NCBI GenBank assembly: GCA_001244265.2
Contig: CDLV01000004.1
Coordinates: 1,240,001 to 1,304,000 of the forward strand
DNA from: Microbotryum violaceum
Lineage: Eukaryota
DNA length: 64,000 bases
Direction: 5' to 3'
The notes under the pieces are model-generated. The model was not told the DNA's origin. It did not search any database and saw nothing but the letters and a program-made list of their open reading frames with translations. The first letter of the stretch is position 1. Every line of letters starts with the position of its first letter. Made by a program: the position numbers and the translations under genes. Shown piece after piece: positions 24,644-52,320 of the stretch.

Positions 24644-26605
24644 TTTTTTATTTTTTTGATAGACTTCATTAACAGCATAATTATATTAATACCTAGAAAT
24701 CTTCGGAAAAGTCGGAGGGAGTGTTGTTACGCACACTGGCAGAAGCCAGTAGTGTAGGACTCATTGACCCTGAACCAGGATCAACCATACCCACTAAACC
24801 CCCTTTGGTGTCTTACAGAGACACTAGGCGACCCTTGGACTCCTGAATAGAGGCTCGAAGCCCCTTGAACTCCGTTTCGGTGATCGGTTCCAAAGGATCC
24901 GACGAGAATCGGCGACGGCGACAGAGCTTCCAGATCAAGTGAAAGAAGAGGACTCGTAGTTCGACAAGTTGGCGTTCCGAGCAAAACACGGCCGGGCATA
25001 CAAAGTCAACAAAGACTGGTGGGGGGTCGGGGACAGAGCAGACCAGAGACGCCGGGCAAATGGGCAGCCGACCGCAAGGTGGGCCAGGCACTCGGGTGCT
25101 TCCGAGAGGCACATCACACAGGAGGCAGATCGATTGTTGGGGTGCGGGCTGGTTGGGGAGGCGACTTGGCTTCCCGGATGGAGGGACCCCAGGGAGAGAA
25201 GGTGGCCGGTATCCTCGGCGTTCGAGTGAACCTGGCGAACCTTGCGCAAAGCCTTCCACCAAGCGTTCCAACGTTGTTCAGGCAGATCGAGTACCTTCTG
25301 GTGTCCCTTGGGGGAGATAGGAGGGAAGATGAAGACTTGGTGGTGTTTGGACGCGTTCACAAACGAAGACGGGGTCATCACCTCACCATCGGGCCCTCGA
25401 AAAAGCGTCGGGTTGACCGAGAGTCGTATTCTGTGGCCCGCTGGGAAGTAGAGTACGTGCGTCGCCATTGCTCGAAGTTCCGGCTCTTGGAGAGTTCCGG
25501 GGGATTGAGAGTGGTCACCGAAGCCCAGGCTTCGAAGTATCGGACCCAACGAGCAGGAAGAAGTTTTGTCGTTTTTCTCACCGCATGGTCCCACTTTGGG
25601 GGAGGATGGCAAAAGTAAGCCCACCAGATCCAGATCCAAGGGCGACGATGCTGGTTGGGGGCCGGTCTGGACAAGGTGAAAGGGGTTGGTTCGTTCGGTG
25701 CCTGGAGGCGGATGCGGATGTCGAAGAGGTGGCGTGTGAAGCAGCCGTCCGGGGCCCGGAGCTGGAAGACCCACTTCGCGTGATCGATCGCTAGACGTCG
25801 AGGCAGATCAATCAAGCCGAAGCCGCCGTGATCAAGAGGGGTGCAGAGGCGCGACCGGGAGACCTTCGGACGTCGCTGAGTACCATCCGAAGCTCGACCG
25901 TGAATGGCGAGCATGGCGGCCTCCTCGATCTCCTTGACAACGCTCTTGGGGGCGGGAAGGAATCGGCTGTAGTACAAGATCTTTGTGTAGCAGTAGATGT
26001 TGATGATCGAACACTTGGCTGCATATGGGAGATCGTACATCGGAATCGAGCGTATCCGAGCGATGGTCGAGGCCTTGACATCTTCCCAGCCCGCATCCTC
26101 GGCGATCTCCACCCCGACCTGAATACCAAGGTAGCGAAACTGCGAATCGCTGAGACGCCAGGTCCCGAGATCTGGGGCGCTCGACCGATCCCGAAAATCT
26201 CCAAGGGGGTAGAGGAAGGATTTGACGTTGCTGAGCTTGCTGGCACTTGCCCGTTCGTAAAGCTCGATCGCCCGATTGAGGTGTTCGAGGTCCGAGAGGT
26301 TGTGGAGTGCGCAGCAAGCGTCGTCGGCAAAAAGGAGTTCGCGAACGTTTTGGAGGCCCGCAATATCAATGCCCTTGACTCTCAATCGAATCTGACAGGC
26401 AAAAATTTCGATTGCCAGGACGAAGAGAGACGGAGCCAAAGGATTACCTTGCCGAACGCCCGACAGGATGTCGAAAGTGGCAGAGAGCCAACCGTTGAGG
26501 AAGATCGAGGCAGATTGGTTGGTCTAGGTCGCTCGGTACCATTGGTGGGCTTTGGGGCCGAGGCCAACGGCGCAGAGGACTGCATCAAGGTACGGGTTGT
26601 GGCCT
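24644..26605 (-). mobile_element. LINE family 3 (L1/Tx1-like), 5'-truncated within RT
   Basis: GVRQGNPLAPSLF, LFADD, FRYLGI, HGGFGL, CVMC..HLAVGC. A-rich tail at 24644-24657, ~70 bp upstream of the CCT2 start. The 5' boundary is approximate. Confidence 0.85.
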
Positions 26606-41000: not shown

Positions 41001-42890
41001 GTTTGCGCTGACCATATGTTCGCTCAATGTCTGTGCATGCGCAAGCTCGTTCGTTAGACGGGCACCGACCGAGCTTGCGTCTATATTTTTGCTGCGCAAG
41101 TTGAAAGCTCACGAGGATTCTCAAAGTACACCAGAAACCCGAATTGACAGGCGTGCGCCAGTATCGAAACAACCAAGACTGTTTGCGAGGCCACCAGTAG
41201 CGACAAGCCATAGTAACCCGCATAGCCCACCGAGTACATCGGGTGCGGAGCGAACTGTGGGGTAAGTACATGGTCAAGCCAGCGGTCTTAGACAATCCAG
41301 GCCGAGCACGGAGTTCCCGGGGCACAGGCAGAGACTTACTTCGAATACACCATCAAAGACCAATTCTTGCAGGCTCAAGAAAAAGGCGTCGCCCCAGTAC
41401 CAGCTGCGTCGTGCAGTGCTGCAGTCAGAGATCCGAACTCGATAAGGACGTCGCATCGGATGCGACTTACGCATAATCCTTGACAATCCGATGCGCATCG
41501 ACTTTGACCCAAAGGTTGAACAAGATGAGCGTCACGCCGCCGATCCAACGCAACACATGGAAGGCGGTCGAATGACCGGGCGGGGTTTGCAGGAATGACA
41601 GGGCGAAAAAGAAATACGATAGGAAGTCGTTGAGGAGGATAACGTCGACAAAGTGTCGGAACATGATCCAGACCTGCAAATCATGACGTGGCGAGATGAG
41701 TACCGGCTATGATCACTGGCGGAAGCGCTCGAAGTCAGTACATGGCACTCACGTTGAACTCGATCGGTACCGCCTAGTGCGTGGCGTAGGCAGAGAAGAG
41801 GGAGCACACCAAACGTGAGCAAGACAGCTCCAAAGCATCAAGCATCGGAGTGCCGTCAGAAGAAGCATACGCCGTGATGGGCACAGATGGACGACGGCGA
41901 CATTCCGAAGCGCGACTCACGTCGAAAGCATAATCCGGGCCCATCTTGGCCTTGAGCTCGCTGGTGACCCACCGATGCACGCGCGGTCTACGAGATAGAT
42001 CCATCCAACCTCGTCTGAGCACTGTGCGCACGATCCACCTGTGTTCGCTCTGCCGCTTGAGTACGACGCCTAGCCCGCAGTCGTACGCGAGCCTCCACAA
42101 TGCGAAATAGCCAAGGAAGAAATAGCGCGATCTTGCGAGCGGAAGCGACAAGAATAGCACCACTTGTGCGGCGAGTAGAAACAAGGTGAGCAGGTCGATG
42201 TGCTGCAAGCGAGCAAGATGAGACGAGAGGACGGAGAAGACGGGCGCGATAGAGCAATAGTGGGATAATCCGGCAAAGCGATGACGGTGCATGTGACACA
42301 TGTCGACGTCACAATCGGTTAGTGCATGTTTCGTCAATTGCAAGACGGAGGCGCGCTTGGAGTTTAGATCCTCAACTCAACTGATTTGGGCAGCCTGGGG
42401 TCGAACAAGGACGACAGCATATCGTGTGTCTGAGGAATACGGAACACTGGTGGCCGTTGCCGATCGACGAAGCCGTGAGCACAGATCGTGGGTAGGGTCA
42501 GCGCTGATTTGTGGTGTGCGGCTGCTGCCACGTCACGACCGGCGTGACCCGAGCCGACCGGTCGTCTCCATACGCGACGCCCTACGCGACGCCATGCGAG
42601 ATGCGTAACATGTGATAGATGCACGACACCGTTGGGCTGACCCGCAACGAGCTGAGCGCGCAGTACTTCGCTCGCATCACTGACTGACCTTTGCCATCCG
42701 GGGTTTTGCCTAGTGGAGCGTGCGACTTATCCGAGTCCGACGACTGGGTTGGGTTCACGGCTTGCGATGGCTGTACAGTTTTTGGCGTGGTCGTGGTCGT
42801 GGTCGTGGTGGCCGTGGGCGCAACGTCGGTCGTACCGCCAGGCGCTCGTCGCCTCAGCCCAGACGGGTCTTGTACGTGATCACAGCTCAT
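38047..42890 (-). CDS. CHO2: Phosphatidylethanolamine N-methyltransferase (class I), multi-exon
   Basis: [103 protein letters not shown]. Confidence 0.92.
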
Positions 42891-43073
42891 AGCGAAGCCT
42901 ATCCTCTGGGATCTATCCTGTACGCGCACGCAGGTGAAGTTGACGGGAGGGAAGGGGGGGCGGGGAGGCAAGTCTATGCTACGTGCGAACTTAGGTCGGG
43001 CGAGCAGGTGCCAGGTTGAAGCAGGAAGGACCCCCGAAAGCCCGGCCTGAGGCGCGTAGCGCCCGACTGGACA

Positions 43074-46000
43074 AGGACCCCCGAAAGCCCAGCCATAGGC
43101 GGCCCTCTAAAAACGGCCTTTTTCGAGGCAAAATGTCCAAATATGAGGGCCGCCTAGTGTTGAATAATTTCTGAAAACTACTCTACAAGCTCTACAATGC
43201 TCAGAATTTTTTCTGCACTGCGCGCAGACTGCGTTTTCGCGGTGCGCGGGCCGGAAAGGTCGCGCACGCGCACACCAAGAGCGCCGCCAGCGCTCCGCTC
43301 CACACCCGCCCCGCCGCGATCCACTGCCGCGCTTGATGGACCAAGCTCTGACAAAGCTTACCGCCATACGAGCATGAGCCAGGCTGACCTTCATTCTTCA
43401 TCATTGTTAACGCCCTTCGTCTTCGTCTCTGAACGGCCTCCTGGTGCAAGACAAGCAAGGGATGCTGCTCAAATTCCTTTAATGTTCTGCAAAAGCCTGT
43501 ACCGTTTTTCTTGATTGACGGTGATGTGAATTTCCCCTTCATCACGCCAGTTAGATCGTGTGGAGTCCTTGACCTCGTAGTTGATGCTTGACAAGACCGG
43601 TTTGAGCGAATTCATGATACAGCGCCCATCGACTTGACGAATGCGCGTGTTGCCCTGATGAGACAGGTTGGAGTAAACTCCCGGAGCAATGACACGCAGC
43701 TCTTGTATCACGGCATTTACGAAAAGAGCAAGAGAGTCAAGACTTTCAACACTTTCATAAGTTGTGCTTGACTTCTTGTAAATGTTCCTCACTGCAGGGA
43801 AGGTGACAAGTAAAAGGCGCAGTCACGGTGTTAGTCAGTCACGTGAGGTTTCCCCACACAAGTAGTAGTTTGGCATACCTATCCCGATTGCCAGTCGTTC
43901 CCCGCATTGTTCACCCGAAGGCAAACCCATAGGTTCTTCTGGGATTCCATACACGACCAGTGTGTCCACCTTGAGAGGACGGGGTGCAGACACATCACCA
44001 TCAACAGCTCGGACGAGTACGTGGTTCGACATGATCTGACCATAGACCTCTTGTCGTCCTTTCATTTTGTCCTGTAACGTCGGAGTCAAACGTCAGCGCA
44101 GGAAAAGGCACGCCCCAGCTTGGGTCATGATACATCACGAATCAGCGACTAACGTGAGATCGTCCCTCGGTGATGATCGCAGTTGTCGCTTGCTCGTGCA
44201 ACGTCTTCTCCCGGATATTTGCCCCTGAATTGCTGAAGCGAAGGTTCCTCTCGTTCCCTACAAACTGTCGATACCTGTCCATTCCCATCGTCTCGACTAT
44301 CCGTCGAAGTGCGGCAGAATGCACGTTGCCGCGGTGCTCGGTTCGGTCTTGGGCAAAATGTTGATCTGACGCTACGTTCTGCGCGCCACCTTTAAACTTG
44401 ATCTTCCCGAGGTGTCGGCATTGGTGTGCACGTCGTCGAGCGAGCAAGCTGTCCAAGTCGAGTGTGGGGACAGAGTAGAGGGCCCCCTTCTCTAAAAGAT
44501 AACGCGGGTACGGGGGCGCTTCCCACTGGTTGAGAACATGGGTCTGTATCAGTAAATGCATCGATCAACCGAAAATTGTGTTCACTCACGGATTACTCAT
44601 GCTCATGGCATGCTTCGGCAAGGATCGTTTGAAACTGTCGATCTTCTTCTTCTGCATCGGCTTGATCGAAGCCAGCATCAACAGCATCGCTGAGGGTTCA
44701 ATATACGGTTGTTAGTGATCGTTTGTTGCTCTCAAACACCAAGCTACGTACATCAGAGCTTCCTGGTCAATGTCAAGCGCAGTCACCGAAAGAAGCGCGC
44801 TCAAAATCGCGTCGCGTTCCTCGCGTCGCAGAATACACGGTAATGGCTCGGATCCGATAAGACGGAGACGATCGAGGACTTGGTTCAGACCAGCCTCGTC
44901 CACGTTCGGAGGGACACCTTGGCGAACGGTCGATGTTGCCTCATCTATCGAGAGCAAGTTAAACGACCTGTAAGTGTCATGTCACTCGCACAAGATGAGA
45001 TAAGTGAAAATGACTGAGACTTAACCATCGACCAGGATGTCAGGGAGAGGAGCTTGCTTGCGTTTCTCGATGTCCCGTTCCTCGATGATGTCCCACATGC
45101 GGTCCTTTGAGAATGTCGCTTGCCGCAAGCGCAGCTTTAACAGCGATGGCCTCGATGTCGCCATCGCCCGGATAGGTACCGAGCGCAGTCAAATTGAGGT
45201 TGTGCAGGTTTTGGTAGGTGTGATGGTAACCCTGCGCGGAGCCAGCCGCATCTGTGCCAAGTTGATGCATCACACGCTGTAGTACCTCGACTTTGGCATA
45301 TGACTGAGGAAATGAAAGCCATAGATAGGTTCAGTCTTGCAAGTGATTTGTCAAGGAGGAAGACGTACTTGGAGGAAGTCCAGAGCATCAAACTCCTTCA
45401 CAATCTTGCGCCATGTTCCAAAGAAGTGTTCGACCATCTCGGTCCCTTGTCTCCAGGGAATAAACGCCTCCTGCGGCCAATAGTTCCGATAATTCCGAAC
45501 AATTGCTATGTAGCCCTCGACCACTCGATAGATGCCATCCAGTGTCTGAGGACTGAGGAAGTTGTTGGGAGAACTGCGCGGTTGGGACTCCGCGAATTTC
45601 GTCCATCCCTCCAGGGCATAACGAACGGTCAAGAGCATAAGAACCCGTTCAGCATGTGGTAGCTCGCGATTTTGAATTGCGCCGTGCATCTCGCCAAAAA
45701 GGAAGAGTATGATGACCCCTTCTTGATCTATCTTGCCAACACGCGCGAGCCGTATGACAGTGTCAAGTGTCTCAAAACCAAAGGCTCGATGTGTCGCATT
45801 GTCGTCTTGTCGATCGCGGCGAAGCACATCTCGTCTATACAAAGTACGAAGTTCCGTAGGCAGTGTCGTATCAACTAACTTCAGGAGATCCCGAAAAGTG
45901 AAGCATCCCATGCCGCCAATGATGCAACGCGCACCTGTGTCGAGGGCGTTTCGACAATCCTTGGCGACGTGTTTCTCATCGCGGCAGAAGACGACGGGTG

Positions 46001-49000
46001 TGCCCCCCATTAGCGCCGATCTGATGACGATTGCGGAGAAGATGTCGTTGCTCTGTGGACGAGGTAGGATGTATGTGCACGATACCGGTGATGGTTCAAT
46101 CTCGTTCAAGCGCTCCATTGTCTTGCGTTGAATAACGCCTTCTGTTGCGGCCCCATCGGCGGAGATTGATACCAGCAAGTGTGCCACTCCGAAATTCACG
46201 AGGAGCTCAAGCAAGCCACCGAGCTCCTCCGCGGCGGCAGTGGTGTCAGTCTTCTCGCCGATCACAAAAGCCGCAAGGAGTTTTGCTGTCGAGCCGACCG
46301 CGTTTGAAGCTATCATGTACGTGCGCACCTAGAAGACGTGCCGAAGAAACTAGTCGGCCTTCAGTTCACGACGCACAGTTAAATCACGCAGAACATACCT
46401 TGGTGCCCGCAATTGGGGGATCATCGGAGTTGAAGATCGCCTGTAGCTCTTCTTGAGTTGAATAGGTGATTGAACCTCCTTCGACCCCAATCACAGTGTG
46501 CCGTTCTTCGGACGTGAAGTTGTCATAGATTGGGGTGGTCCGAATCCGGGGTCTCAAACAAGTATCGTCCACATGGAGGTTGAATGTTGCAGCGCCGGCC
46601 GAGATTTCACTGGCAACAGCAGCAATGTGTTCAAGGTCCTGTCCAAATCGTAGTTTGTGTACCGTGTTCCGAACTTGTCTGTGATACGAGCAATCGAGGC
46701 AGGCGATGTACGAATTCAGTAACCTGGCTCACAGCAGACAACAACATCAGCCCATTGTACAACTCACTGAAGCTTCCGATTTGATGACGCGCCGATAGAC
46801 ATTTGCAGGACTCGCAGGGCGGCAGGCGATGCCATTGCAATGGCTTGCTCAAATTTGACCAAAGCTTGGGTTCGCACAAATCCACGCATTGTCTTGCCGG
46901 CATCTGTTCGTTCGCTCTTGGTAACCGCAGCACGGATCATGCCATCCATAATGGCGTGGCCTTGCAATTGGCCGGACGCCATCTTCTGCGCAAATCGGAG
47001 GAACAGGCTTGGCTTGTCGTGCGAGTTAAAGAGTTCCTCCAGACCATTGCACCGTCGATATATCGACGTGACGAGCGTGTCCCCAGCGCAGAACCTCTTG
47101 TTGGTGAACCTCTGCGTCTCCGTGGGCGCCGCTTTATAACGAAGAACCGCTGTAAAGAGACAATTGCCGGCTACCTTGAGGCATTCCTTACAAGGATTGG
47201 CCCGTAGTCCACTGGTTGGGCTGTATCCTGCTGCTCCCAGACATATCCTGCTCTTGACGCATTGCAAGACATGGTCGTTACGCCATTCTAGAACGTCCCT
47301 CTCGTGAAGATTCACCTGCGTCCCCTCGTCCTTGTCAAGTAGGATATTTTTCTCAACTTTTTTGGCTGGGTACACCTGTATGATGAGATCCCTTCGTCTT
47401 GAGGCACCACCTCCTGGAGCGGATGTGCGCGTTAGGTAATCCAGACAAGTGGGAGTTGTAAGACTTGGGCAAGGCGTGATGGCGTCAGGAGTCTTCGCCC
47501 ATGTCGGGAAATCGGAAACCTTGGGTAGTAACCCAGTGATGCGGGGATTCAAACGGTTGGTGCGGCAGCTGGCTCCTTTGAGGTGGTCTCTGAATCGAGA
47601 CGGTTGGAACCTCCCTTTGACCCTGATGTGCTTGCGGCAAGCACCACAGATTACGACGCGCAGGTTGGTACTGGAGACTTTTGAGCCCGGACATGCCTCT
47701 TCGATCTCGCGGGTATACCGAGTCAACTTCTCTTGAAGCTCCAGCGCCTTTGCCGCGTCGTCCATTGCGCTTTGCGTGCGGGCTTTCGATCGCGAACCTC
47801 TTTTTTCTCGCATCTCGGATTCATCGACGGGGTGCTTGGGAGGCCTGACTACAACCGGCATCGTTGGTGTTCCAAACAGCCTTGACCAATCTCCACGAAG
47901 CTTTGCCACAGGTGCAGAAGCTACAGTCGGCGGTAGTGGGATTGATGGCTGTGCTCGTAAAGGACGACACGGAAGTGCAGCATCAAATGCAGTATTCGCC
48001 GTGTTACCGAAAACACTTGACCAGTCCGCGCGAAGGTTCCGCGCTGCAACTACAGCTGCGGCATTCGACGGTGGCGTTGACGGTGACGCTGATGGCGATG
48101 TAGGAGGTGACGGAGACGACGAAGTTGAAGCTCGCAACGAAGGCAGAGGGGGGAACTGATCGGCTGTCGAGTCAATGGAATGCGACATAATCACGTCTTT
48201 GTCATCAAGTTCCGAGGCGTTGCCTTGATCACTCTCCAAGACGTCCAGGGAGTACATTTCGATATCACCGTCATCATTCTCGTCCGCTTCTTGGAGTATT
48301 TGCTGAGCGATCCGATCGAATTGGCGAAGACGCAGCATCTTTGAGTGCCGAGGGTCAAAGGGCTCAAGTCGGAGCAGTTCTTCCTCTACCACACTGATGC
48401 ATGCAGGACCGCACGAGTGAGAATCGCCTTGGACGGCGATCGGTAGAACTTGAAAGCTTTTGTGTTTGAGTGCGATCCCGAGGTAGGCGATGAGATCGAG
48501 TACTCCAGTAACGAGATCGGAAGCTGGCGGCAGGCTGGGCATCGAGTTGGCCAGACTCCAGGCTTGCTGTTTTGCGTCGATGCGGACGAGATACCAATGC
48601 TCCTTTTGGCAAATGGGAACGAAGCAGATGATATCGTTGTCCCTTTCGATGAGTCGGCGCAGATCCGACAGCGAGGCAAGCCCCAAATGATGCAGTTCGT
48701 CAAATTTGACATTGTCAAGATGCTCGATCCGCGCTCCTCGTCGGTTCAACCTGATGGCATCGGAAAAGAACCAGGCGGGCAAGGCAACGAATCGAAGAGA
48801 CGATGGTGCTGATGCTAGGACGCTCTCGAGCATCCAATCCATGTGTGTTTCGGAGTACCAGGCGGAGCCTGCAGACACACGCAAGAATCTACCCACATCA
48901 GTATCCAAGATCGACTCATGAATGAGCCCAGAGGATGCAAACTCACTGAGGATCTGTAGAAAGTCTTGGAGGCGTGTAGATCGACCTCGAAGATTGACGC

Positions 49001-49828
49001 GGTCGACAGCTGTCCAACGTATGCGAGTGAGGTGATGACGAGCACTCGCAAGCTCACGCTCCCGAATCGCGTCGGCGTTAGCTAATCGAGGAATCCATTC
49101 TTGAATGTTGTGGATGATATATCGATTTTTTTCTGCCTTGTCGAGATGGGCCCATAACGCCGAGGCATTGAGAGGAAGGCGCATTGACCGACGACCCCGA
49201 TACGGCGAATGCGATAGATCGATAGCCATCGAGATAAGCCAAGGATAGAAAGCTTTGATCGGAAAACTTTCCGATAGATTGCTTCAAGGGGCGTGGCAGC
49301 GCGTCAAAATGTCGAGGGTCATCTTTCGATAGAGCAAGTCGGAGAGAAGCGTCGGGCGCAGGTAGGTCGTACGCGAGTAGGTCAACGAGGCGTAGGTCGG
49401 CAACAGGGCTCAAGATTGCAAATTCCTCGGAGGTGAGAGCAAAGTTCGGTTCGATATTAATGATCACAGGCATTTTGAACACCTTTGTAGACACGTTTGT
49501 AGAGTATAGAGTGCCAGTGATTGTTTGCCACGACCGCGGTCGGTGGCGTGTCGCGCGAGTCAAACTGAAATGGACTCGAATAGGATTCCAGGATCGATCG
49601 CAAATGCAGCACTTACCAACGCGCTCAAATCGCAAACAGCGCGACGGTTACCCGCGCGCAGCTAGGCCGGCTATATGCCCGGCGCCTCCAGCCTCCCGCT
49701 ACCCTGGTCTGCGCTTCAAAGTTCGACCGGAGGGAGGAAATGTCCAAAAATGAGGTGAGCCTCGACCCATTTTGATCCAAAAATGTCCAAATTTGCGGGC
49801 CGCCTCTGGCTGGGCTTTCGGGGGTCCT
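43074..49828 (-). mobile_element. TIR DNA transposon, P-element-like, carrying a Ulp1-type protease domain
   Basis: 32-bp TIRs AGGACCCCCGAAAGCCCAGCCA(T/G)AGGCGGCCC at 43074-43105 and 49797-49828 (1 mismatch), enclosing one long spliced gene. No TSD recognised. Confidence 0.85.
43469..49473 (-). CDS. Multi-exon Ulp1/C48 protease - Cys/His-rich region - P-like DDE transposase (two apparent 1-bp frameshifts)
   Basis: FVPICQKEHWYLVRID..ANS..QGDSHSCG protease. CGAC..H..C and PCKEC motifs. LHVDDT (~46565), SADG (~46155), DEKHVAKDCRN (~45975), RQDDNATHRAF, TEMVEHFFGTWR (~45425) resemble P transposase DxxH and EHFFG motifs. Frameshifts near 49195 and 45105. Confidence 0.72.
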
Positions 49829-49989
49829 GGCTCGTGCACGAAAGCGTTCAACATCTTGATGTCCTTTGGAAGAAAAAAGTGGATAACAACAGTTCAAAAA
49901 GGAAACTACAAAAGCCAAATAATAAAACAAATATGCTTGGATCTACTGGTCTACAGATCTTGAATAACCCCTCTAATAAAAACCTCGAC

Positions 49990-52320
49990 CTAACTCCGAC
50001 CCGCTGAAGATGATCGCCAAGTTTGCTGAACCCCTTCCTCCAAATCATTCCGACCACCACCACCACCACCACCACCACTAGCCAATCCCATCGATCCCGG
50101 TGAATGAGCCAATAAATACTGCGTTCCCCCTAGAGTCAAACTCAATTTCCGACTCGCTTGTTTGAGCGTTTTGGTGGGGGAATGGCCTAGACTTCCGAAT
50201 CGACTTGTGCTCGTGAGCGAAGAAGGGTCTATGATGGAGGGTACTTCGAGGGATATAGGATGGGGAAAGTCGAACAGCGTGGAGGGGGTGTGGGTTTGTG
50301 TTGCGTAAGAGGTGTCCGGGTAGGTCGAGTGGGATTTGCCTTCCTCAGAGTGGTTCTCTTCGGAGGGTGCATCACCGGTCAAGAGGTAAACGCCTGGCAC
50401 AAAGCCAGACATTGAAGGACCGCTTAGCTTCTCTTCATCGCCTTTTTATCCACGCGATAACTCACCTGCACCACAAATCACACACCCAAAGATAAAGTTG
50501 AAGAAGGAAGAGAGGTCGACGTCGTCGAATTCTCGATAGAGCACCGCCGAGCCAACTGGTACCAGATACGATGATATGAATACTCAGTGAAGCGCTCCCG
50601 CCACGCTGAGAGGGATGAGAAACCTACCGATAGTCGACAAAGCGAACGAGGTGAATTGGATAGGGATCACGACCCTCGAGTCGAACCTACGAGCGCACGA
50701 AAAGCTTGCTGATCAGCGATAACCTTTCTAGGGAAAAAGTTGTGGCAAAGCGTACCTCTGCAAGGCCTTGTTGATAAAGTTGATCTGCAACATCGCCGAA
50801 CCAGCCAAGACGAGGAGAAGGGGATAGGTGACCCAATATTCGAACGTTTGCAGAAAGAGGATGTTGAGGAACGACGAGATCGCTTTCGTCGACAAGACGG
50901 TAAAGGCACCCTAGAGGAATAATCAGAATTTCAGCCCTAGACCCAGTGAGCTGGGATGAAAATTTTGGAGAAAGTCCTTACAGACAGAGCACAAATCCCC
51001 AGATCGATGATGACGTATCGATCGCCGTATTTTGATCTGGACAGACAGACAAGCACAGCGATCGCGGCGATGGAGGCGATCGAGTAGGCGAGGAAGAGAG
51101 GCGTCGAGATCGCAGCGACCATCTCGGGCGGGTAGAGCTTTAAAGGGGTGGGGGTTCGGATTTCAGCGGGAGCTTCAAGTCGAATCGGTCGAGGATCTGC
51201 AGCTCACAAGTTTATCCTGGGCCTTGGAGGCCCATACGATCGTGACGGCGCCCATGGCCGCTAGCGCGCAACCAAAGAGGTCAAGTTTTCGAAAGGGCTG
51301 CGAAGATTTCGCTGGTGGCCCGATCAGGGAAGACCTGACATCAAGTGGTCCAAAGGAGAGGAACGGACCTCTCCACAAATCAACGGTGCCAGACCAACGT
51401 TTGCTACCAGAGCCACCGAGCCCAACTGTGTGCGTCTACCAGCCACTCGATCAGCCCCAAGACGTCCCCATTTGAAGATGGAAGAATTGGCCGGGGGTTA
51501 CGCACCGGAGCCACCAACGAGGCGGGGGCGAACGAATAACTCAAAAAGTTGCCAAACTCGCCCAGGGCCAATAAGGAAAAGCCGAGGAGCCATAGGGGTG
51601 ATTTGATGAACTCCTTGTCCGTACGAGGTTGGTGAACGGAGTCGGGGCGGTGATCCTCGTCGGGGTCCGGCTGCTCGGCGTGGTTGGATCGAGTTTGGCT
51701 CACGGTACCATAGCTTTGAGACCGATTGCCGTTAAAATAGATGGTCCGGGACGAGTGTTTGCAGAGTTTTTTGGTCGGTCTCTTAGGTGGACCTGCGGCT
51801 AGGGAGGGGGAAGCTTGATCGGGTCTAGGCAAGAGGTGAAGGTTCGGAGGCACGTCGCTGATCTCGGGATCGGAGATGGACCGCTCGAGTTGGGTCGGTG
51901 GGAGTAGCTCGGAAAGCAAGTGGGTGTGCTCGCCGATGGTGTTGGAGGTTGAAATTGTTTGTTGGTGGTCCTGGTCGGGTTTGTTGGGGGGAGAGGGGGG
52001 AGAGGAAGGTTCAGAGTGGTTTGAATGACCACGTTCGAGTCGGGTATGAGCCAGTCTGCGAGGTGGAATCCAGGTCAGTGAGCAGCACATCGGATTTAAG
52101 AGTTTCTGAACTGGCTCACTTTTGAACATTCAACGCCAGCGAAACACATGTATTCCCTGCGCGACGACCCCACACGAATCAGCTATTCGCTGTCCCAAGT
52201 ACGGTCGGAGATGTATGTGTAGTACTGACCCGCAACACAGATCGCGACACCAATCAAGGTGGACGTCCCTTGGGAGACCGTCCCTTCTCTCCAAGCGAGC
52301 ACGAACGCAGCTTGCAACAT
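49990..52320 (-). CDS. NIPA/DUF803 family Mg2+ transporter-like membrane protein, multi-exon
   Basis: IGVAICVAG/NTCISLALNVQK, KSPLWLLGFSLLALGEFGNFLSYSFAPASLVAP, IIDLGICAL, LQINFINKALQ. Confidence 0.85.

Follow-up and report, generated by a model that had tools for sequence, protein, structure and literature searches.

The described systems closest to the locus reported here are the P element of Drosophila and THAP9, transposons of other superfamilies that carry a Ulp1-type protease, and the few P families recorded from fungi. In PMC7776569, P elements are described as having terminal inverted repeats (TIRs) of ~31 nucleotides (nt), asymmetric subterminal regions, 8-bp target duplications and internally deleted copies, and the THAP domain is described as confined to animals; since it is so restricted, THAP is not universal in the P superfamily. 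For fungi, a survey by Pfam models counted 11 P copies, as "single occurrences," and cited 17 Repbase P families from "only Pucciniales and Allomyces" (Muszewska et al., 2017, PMC5751038). Ulp1 domains have been reported in Mutator elements and, in C-terminal position, in Ginger1 transposases, with a role stated to be unknown (Bao et al., 2010, PMC2836005), and also in CACTA elements (PMC8978399). The sequence-only reading described below also named Zisupton as a carrier of Ulp1; no paper in the literature searched mentions the two together. In Microbotryum, the genome paper for M. lychnidis-dioicae classed TIR elements broadly only (PMC4469406). Here we describe a 6.75-kb element at positions 43074-49828 of a 64,000-nt stretch of Microbotryum violaceum DNA (assembly GCA_001244265.2, contig CDLV01000004.1, positions 1,240,001 to 1,304,000 of the forward strand; hereafter the window, numbered from its first letter). 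The element holds one minus-strand gene inside TIRs, and we consider it, with a probability of about 0.8, to be a copy of an autonomous-type, cut-and-paste transposon from a fungal (basidiomycete) branch of the P superfamily, in which a Ulp1/SENP-type protease is fused to the transposase.

Comparison with these systems shows both shared and distinct features. Like Drosophila P and THAP9, the Microbotryum element has a similar spacing of the residues D, D and E, TIRs of ~31-32 nt with asymmetric subterminal motifs, 8-bp target duplications (here in relatives) and frequent internally deleted, non-autonomous derivatives. It differs from them in that its protein lacks THAP and has another zinc-finger module, and in that it adds an N-terminal region and a Ulp1 protease. 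Its repeat sequence is unrelated to that of Drosophila P, its core has no sequence-level similarity, and the Drosophila transposase, at 751 residues, is about half as long as the 1,772 residues that an intact Microbotryum sibling would encode. The Repbase fungal families share with it the P superfamily and, for Pucciniales, the subphylum Pucciniomycotina. Mutator/KAONASHI, Ginger1 and CACTA elements are alike in that a DDE transposase encodes C48/Ulp1 or is fused to it; they belong to other superfamilies, however, and in the family described here the protease is N-terminal and present in 46/46 full-length members examined. An earlier reading of this stretch made from the letters alone (the sequence-only reading) knew of no characterization of such a fusion, and our full-text literature search agreed, as it retrieved no account of Ulp1/C48 in a P-type transposase; since Repbase Reports lay outside that search, a catalogue entry for the fusion may exist there. 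Within the literature searched, the fusion is new for the P superfamily, while protease-transposase pairings in other superfamilies and fungal P families in Repbase are already known.

The structure of the gene was established by comparing four public sequencing runs with positions 42000-51000 of the window. No run is recorded as RNA; we took X2 and X7 as RNA and X1 as DNA, because X2 and X7 contigs are spliced at GT..AG borders while X1 contigs read through the same introns. Nine introns (48946-48869, 46767-46679, 46398-46329, 45368-45304, 45025-44945, 44751-44690, 44589-44526, 44153-44072, and 43878-43792), each GT..AG on the minus strand, are all skipped in X2/X7 contigs, where they appear as CT..AC joints; the second is the splice across 46766 that the sequence-only reading had anticipated. 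The start codon was placed as in two M. silenes-dioicae relatives (P0003 and P0006). Protease, linker and zinc fingers lie within one uninterrupted exon, and a 2,444-nt X7 contig (record 17) with 0 differences from the window links 47756 to 45090 over three introns, which places the zinc-finger region and the catalytic core on one spliced RNA. From the open frame and the relatives we infer a single transcript running from protease to core. The window copy, although defective (see below), is thus transcribed and correctly spliced. An 839-residue open reading frame (ORF; 46764-49283, minus strand) shares 97% identity with M. lychnidis-dioicae MVLG_06693, its next matches being M. silenes-dioicae proteins. 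With the three lesions of the window copy set aside, the coding sequence comes to 5,319 nt. The expected union of transposase and protease in one gene stands, as one reading frame and one spliced gene inside the repeats, conserved in relatives.

The protease domain was characterized by folding window exon 2 (46770-48866) together with 41 relatives. Residues 1-200 of the model are confident, 201-358 are disordered, and 360-699 are again confident. The window's protease domain has the CE-clan protease fold, and the family profile matches yeast Ulp1 (E 1.4e-17) and SENP1 (6.6e-15) at the level of sequence, in keeping with the Ulp1/SENP-type identity first suggested for it. Histidine and cysteine, which had been expected near 48598 and in QGDSHSC near 48412, were found there (Table 1), and counts over the 42 aligned sequences are 41/42 for the catalytic His, 42/42 for Gln, 42/42 for Cys and 34/42 for Asp. 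Of 51 long relatives, 34 contain the Pfam family PF02902 at E ≤ 0.01 and 29 score above its cut-off. Yeast Ulp1, human SENP1-3,5 and DEN1 differ from this domain in that the latter is embedded in a transposase. Its placement as an N-terminal domain was correct in that it precedes the transposase; it does not, however, form the very N-terminus. The linker that follows had been called low-complexity and is predicted to be disordered, and its sequence is not conserved (alignment A3).

Beyond the linker, the Cys/His clusters already noted in the sequence fold with high confidence in the exon-2 model. They comprise a [C/H]x2C...Hx5C finger, conserved in 37-39 of 42 sequences, followed by a module with PCPG, GGG, W.N and CxxC. 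Together with a long helix, they form what is presumably the DNA-binding region, at the place that THAP occupies in animal P transposases. Pfam scans found no THAP domain in the window ORFs, nor, at E ≤ 0.01, in the 51 long relatives. The sequence-only reading had the protease standing in place of THAP; since the coiled helix and zinc-finger module fill that position, the protease is instead an upstream addition. Within the second zinc module, a nearly invariant GGG follows R[TS]xxx (APGGGAS in the window, TIGGGAT in the relative P0009; predicted local distance difference test score, pLDDT, about 90), and it recalls the Gly-Gly end of SUMO.

The 325-residue ORF of the catalytic core (45351-46328) matched no Pfam family even at E 10, and a search of 1.84 billion proteins returned 543 cluster representatives at E ≤ 1e-3, many of them 1,500-2,000 residues long with the match near residue 1,000-1,350. 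The conserved motifs are S.A.DG...E, QDSKH..K..RN, RDV...DRQDD and LPW.HSTE..EH.FG..R; the DDT, DG, DxxH and EHFFG motifs listed earlier were located in the window as HVDDT, SADGAATE, DEKH and GTEMVEHFFGTWR. Because the window core is split by introns, we folded in its place the paralogue P0007 (MVLG_06469, 862 residues, 50% identical to the window core), using an alignment of 62 relatives. In the resulting model pLDDT exceeds 90 over most of residues 40-540, and Foldseek against the PDB, a check the sequence-only reading had proposed, gave its best matches to the transposase of the Drosophila P element (6pe2_A and 6p5a_A; E ~2e-14, TM-score 0.69-0.72 on the target), with runners-up at E ~1e-3 or worse. 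The matched chain range of the P enzyme comprises, according to PMC7776569, the helix-turn-helix (HTH), split RNase H and insertion domains. The model likewise has an RNase H core split by a P-type (GTP-binding) insertion domain, with an HTH before the core. Across 63 sequences, D138/D139, D261 and E504/E507 of P0007 reach at least 90% conservation, and the model puts them on beta-1, behind beta-4 and in a helix, where the residues of a DDE triad would be expected; their window equivalents are HVDDT, SADGA and TEMVEH. In a language-model Atlas, the window core adjoins clusters that carry TNP-like GBD and RNaseH domains (score 0.91); the ten best Pfam-bearing neighbors share family or clan with the best, and the rows listed carry P-type TNP-like domains. 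The P-element HTH family PF12017 was detected in 3 of 51 long relatives, above cut-off in two (P0031 and P0140).

To judge how far the fusion extends, hidden Markov models (HMMs) were built here and applied to 164 fetched proteins, 158 of which have the core; the protease HMM was built from 42 of the same proteins. The protease was present in 46/46 proteins that have 700 or more residues ahead of the core, in 1/13 with 300-699 and in 0/99 with fewer, the shorter proteins being most simply truncated gene models or fragments. A homologue search with alignment A2 that covered proteins of 3,503-5,000 residues gave no match. The domain has been kept over deep divergence, at ~20% identity (alignment A3). 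Metagenome contigs scanned with a closer alignment (A4) yielded 152 relatives, of which 80 loci were kept. In 13 of these loci, inverted repeats 6.3-8.2 kb apart flank the match, and most begin AGG(A/C)CCCC like the window ends. In all nine loci examined (9/9), a single strand encodes, between AGGACCCC-type repeats like those of the window element, first the N-terminal region, then protease, zinc-finger region and core, and last the C-terminal part. Perfect 8-bp target-site duplications were found in 4/13 (L024, GTGCCCCT; L012, AGCTGACC; L070, GGCGTCAG; L031, GGCCAATC), that of L031 once its ends are shifted by 1 nt; L001 and L002 are identical in sequence. Judged from these sequences, the Ulp1-P fusion is a trait of the family. 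The protein databases label the relatives "ubiquitin-like protease domain-containing" or hypothetical.

TIRs of 32 bp had been described for the element, and the outermost 32 nt of both ends do agree at 31/32; the longer arms (53 nt) are 81% complementary, and the 21-nt terminus occurs three times in the 64-kb window against 0.00 expected. Contigs with unrelated flanks stop at 43027, at 43074 and at 49829/49831 in three runs, where other copies of the element end; a search for copies sharing the TIR had been proposed in the sequence-only reading. Loose ends at 43027 number 2 in X1, 5 in X2 and 2 in X7, and at 43074, 2 each in X1 and X7. The two left-end repeat copies (43027-43054 and 43074-43101) are 90% alike over 29 nt, and 43027 and 43074 may be alternative left ends. 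We also considered that an excision had left the partial outer repeat (43027) as its footprint, and rejected this, since the next 19 nt give no match to the right end. The 64 kb contain three copies of the 15-nt motif AAATGTCCAAAWWTG (0.03 expected), each within 90 nt of an element end; the motif is a candidate binding site for the transposase. Beyond ~30 nt the two ends diverge, and they do so conservedly across distant relatives (loci L001-L075): the gene-5'-side end carries ..(T/C)CCGGAC(A) (in the window, TTTGGACA at 49776-49795) and the gene-3'-side end ..AAAA(C/T)GG (in the window, CTAAAAACGG at 43105-43120). TIRs with subterminal motifs are thus present, as in the P superfamily. X2/X7 RNA contigs also reach the right end (49828/49829) and, after 3-4 other letters, resume in the left part of the element at 43040 and 43244; they may represent tail-to-head neighbors or end-to-end junctions. 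Immediately left of the element, minus-strand introns at 42203-42381 and 42447-42688 are seen as X2/X7 joints and indicate an expressed host gene beside the insertion.

The sequence-only reading called the element near-intact, and this did not hold, as the window copy is defective through two frameshifts and one stop codon. Joined by their coordinates, the exons run through three successive reading frames. At lesion 1, an X2 sibling transcript is 4+3+3 = 10 bases shorter, which restores the frame, while X7 record 19 has the letters of the window. At lesion 2, the frame of the window hits a stop after ..ETQASSSP, and X7 record 17 has the same gap. Since X7 contigs carry both unchanged, lesions 1 and 2 are not errors of the window assembly. 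Sibling copies without each of the three lesions are present in the read sets. Internally deleted copies are present as well, with a joint 44933>48844 in X1 (DNA) and X7 (spliced RNA) and further joints 44318>48500 in X2 and 43289>49566 in X1. The M. silenes-dioicae proteins P0003-P0006, annotated at 500-650 residues, are translations of such copies; their N-terminal region is joined directly to the C-terminal region, and protease, zinc fingers and core are absent. By analogy with the KP elements of flies, proteins of deleted copies could act as regulators. In P0005, the first 94 residues match window 24816-25057 (87-100% identity) and the remainder matches the element, so that this model has probably fused a host gene with a deleted copy of the transposon. 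Another M. silenes-dioicae protein, P0163 (1,763 residues), bears the Helitron-type helicase family PF14214 (precomputed) and matches the core as well as a short stretch of the protease HMM; a nested insertion or the merging of gene models probably accounts for it.

Table 1. Features of the Microbotryum element, in window coordinates; minus-strand motifs are given from high to low positions.
Feature	Position	Strand	Remarks
Transposase gene	43469-49473	-	ATG at 49473, TGA 43471-43469, ten exons
Exon 1	48947-49473	-	Conserved N-terminal region; tblastn of P0009 and P0019, alignment A3
Ulp1/SENP-type (CE clan, C48) cysteine protease	48267-48866	-	~175 conserved residues precede
Protease catalytic residues	His 48599-48597; Asn (at Asp position) 48548-48546; Gln 48431-48429; Cys 48413-48411	-	
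Protease motifs	EHWYL 48602-48588; QGDSHSC 48431-48411	-	
Ser/Pro/Ala-rich low-complexity linker	47793-48266	-	pLDDT <50, residues 201-226 and 228-358
Long helix and zinc-finger modules	47127-47804	-	Between linker and HTH
Zinc motifs	CGAC...H...C 47648-47565; PCP 47477-47463; GGG (in APGGGAS) 47420-47400; W.N 47288-47271; CxxC 47198-47181	-	
Helical (HTH) region	46770-47075	-	Leads into core
Split RNase H core with large insertion domain	45369-46678	-	Exons 3 and 4
Core motifs	HVDDT 46575-46561; SADGAATE 46163-46140; DEKH 45980-45969	-	First D in HVDDT, second D in SADGAATE
Core motifs, continued	RDRQDD 45818-45801; GTEMVEHFFGTWR 45446-45408	-	Second motif contains E
C-terminal region, exons 5-10	43469-45303	-	Conserved in relatives, retained in internally deleted derivatives
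Left TIR	43074-43126	+	Gene's 3' end; begins AGGACCCCC
Right TIR	49776-49828	-	Gene's 5' end
Extra partial left terminal repeat	43027-43054	+	28 nt, 47 bp outside main left repeat (I2, 93%)
Subterminal 15-nt motif, copy 1 of 3	43131-43145	+	3 matches, all in element ends
Subterminal 15-nt motif, copies 2 and 3	49738-49752; 49781-49795	+	
Lesion 1, frame change	49189-49211	-	Between ..AFAVSGSS and LPLNASALWAHL..; no room for an intron
Lesion 2, 2-nt gap against X2 transcript	45101	-	X2 has AA inserted behind 45101
Lesion 3, in-frame TAA	44595-44593	-	X1, X2 and X7 contigs read CAA (Gln); 44595 A>G on + strand

Several observations weigh against reading the element as a P-superfamily transposon with a fused protease. 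No listed contig bridges the protease and the core, a gap at 47757-48060 lying between X7 records 17 and 18. The window copy has no target-site duplication (lengths 2-10, end shifts up to 2 nt, with the left end at 43074 or 43027), nor do 9/13 metagenomic candidates, where rearrangement or chimeric assembly may be the cause. The only species named among the relatives are two of Microbotryum and Mycena galericulata. In the protease, the window carries Asn where 34/42 sequences have Asp (Asn in 5/42, window included) and where the third catalytic residue of yeast Ulp1, the SENPs and DEN1 is Asp, and its PF02902 score of 16.9 bits lies below the Pfam gathering cut-off of 20.7. In the core, neither the window ORFs nor the 51 relatives match the Pfam core P-transposase families (PF21787/8/9 and PF12596), and the core profile A1 gave a chance match only against PDB sequences (E 0.5), the P transposase not being matched. 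The fold, moreover, is predicted for the paralogue P0007 and not for the window's own spliced core, and no Kolobok or Kyakuja-Dileera-Zisupton (KDZ) structure exists for comparison. Because of the missing sequence-level match, the assignment rests on the fold, the 8-bp duplication and the few HTH matches. On the predicted fold, the 8-bp duplication and the structure of its ends, the element belongs to the P superfamily.

On our reading of a P-type transposon with a fused protease, the protein of an intact sibling would run from the N-terminal region through a Ulp1/SENP cysteine isopeptidase, disordered linker, helix/zinc-finger module, HTH and split DDE core to the C-terminal domain. The zinc-finger module would bind the subterminal motifs, and the DDE core would excise and reinsert the element as the Drosophila P transposase does. 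The protease would take off SUMO (NEDD8 or ubiquitin being less likely) that is attached to chromatin or repair proteins of the host or to the transposase; to such an action in trans we give, among the protease roles considered, somewhat less than an even chance. An action in cis seems improbable to us. In this case the protease would cut its own polyprotein and free the transposase from the N-terminal part, leaving host SUMO conjugates alone. The long disordered linker, which separates the protease from the rest, and the nearly invariant GGG downstream would suit such a role, and the related proteases of adenovirus, poxvirus and African swine fever virus cut after Gly-Gly-type sites. However, the GGG belongs to a confidently folded module outside the linker, the linker sequence lacks conservation, Pfam finds no ubiquitin-like domain in the 51 relatives, and Ulp1-type enzymes recognize the whole SUMO fold. 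We think it just as improbable that the protease is weakened or dead in the Microbotryum lineage and serves as a binding or scaffold module, for example one that binds SUMO to target the transposase. The Asn in the window and four other sequences and the score below the Pfam cut-off point in this direction, but His, Gln and Cys are kept, papain-type cysteine proteases use Asn as their third catalytic residue, and the domain has been retained despite its deep divergence.

Very improbable, in our estimation, is a core derived from Kolobok or from another superfamily with 8-bp duplications (hAT or KDZ), matched to P through lack of a closer solved structure. The absence of a sequence match to P families and of Kolobok or KDZ structures from the PDB list would leave room for it, and 8-bp duplications are also made by hAT and by Zisupton, for the latter as recorded for Zisupton-1_PGr (PMC12730594). 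Against this, no hAT-type fold with a C-terminal dimerization domain was found, the hAT dimerization domain being absent from the 51 relatives at E ≤ 0.01. At the same threshold, neither the window ORFs nor the relatives contain a Pfam KDZ transposase or CxC family. The P-specific HTH is above cut-off in P0031 and P0140, and the Atlas neighbors listed carry P-type domains. Kolobok duplicates TTAA, at odds with the four 8-bp duplications. Finally, a domesticated, no longer mobile host gene derived from a transposase, as its correctly spliced transcript and the annotation of relatives as ordinary proteins might suggest, is hardly tenable given the TIRs, the several copies with different flanks, the internally deleted derivatives, the three disabling lesions, and the 8-bp duplications in relatives.

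The family bears on transposon biology in several ways. Ulp1 recurs in several unrelated transposon superfamilies without a demonstrated role, and the family described here offers a test case, as its protease is fused in frame to a transposase structurally closest to the well-understood P enzyme and is expressed in a culturable fungus. The Pfam models used in the survey of fungi (PMC5751038) do not detect the family, and fungal P-type elements may be much commoner than such surveys suggest (543 cluster representatives and 152 metagenomic matches vs. 11 copies). We would advance only tentatively, with the odds well against it as a whole, the broader view that P-type transposons are widespread in basidiomycetes and have been overlooked because Pfam models miss them; that all full-length members of this branch depend on an active SUMO protease, which would act at the transposon ends on chromatin, silencing or repair factors of the host or on the transposase, de-SUMOylation being either obligatory for transposition or a means of counter-silencing; and that deleted copies act as KP-like regulators. 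The family would also mean that a module different from THAP can provide DNA binding for a P-type core.

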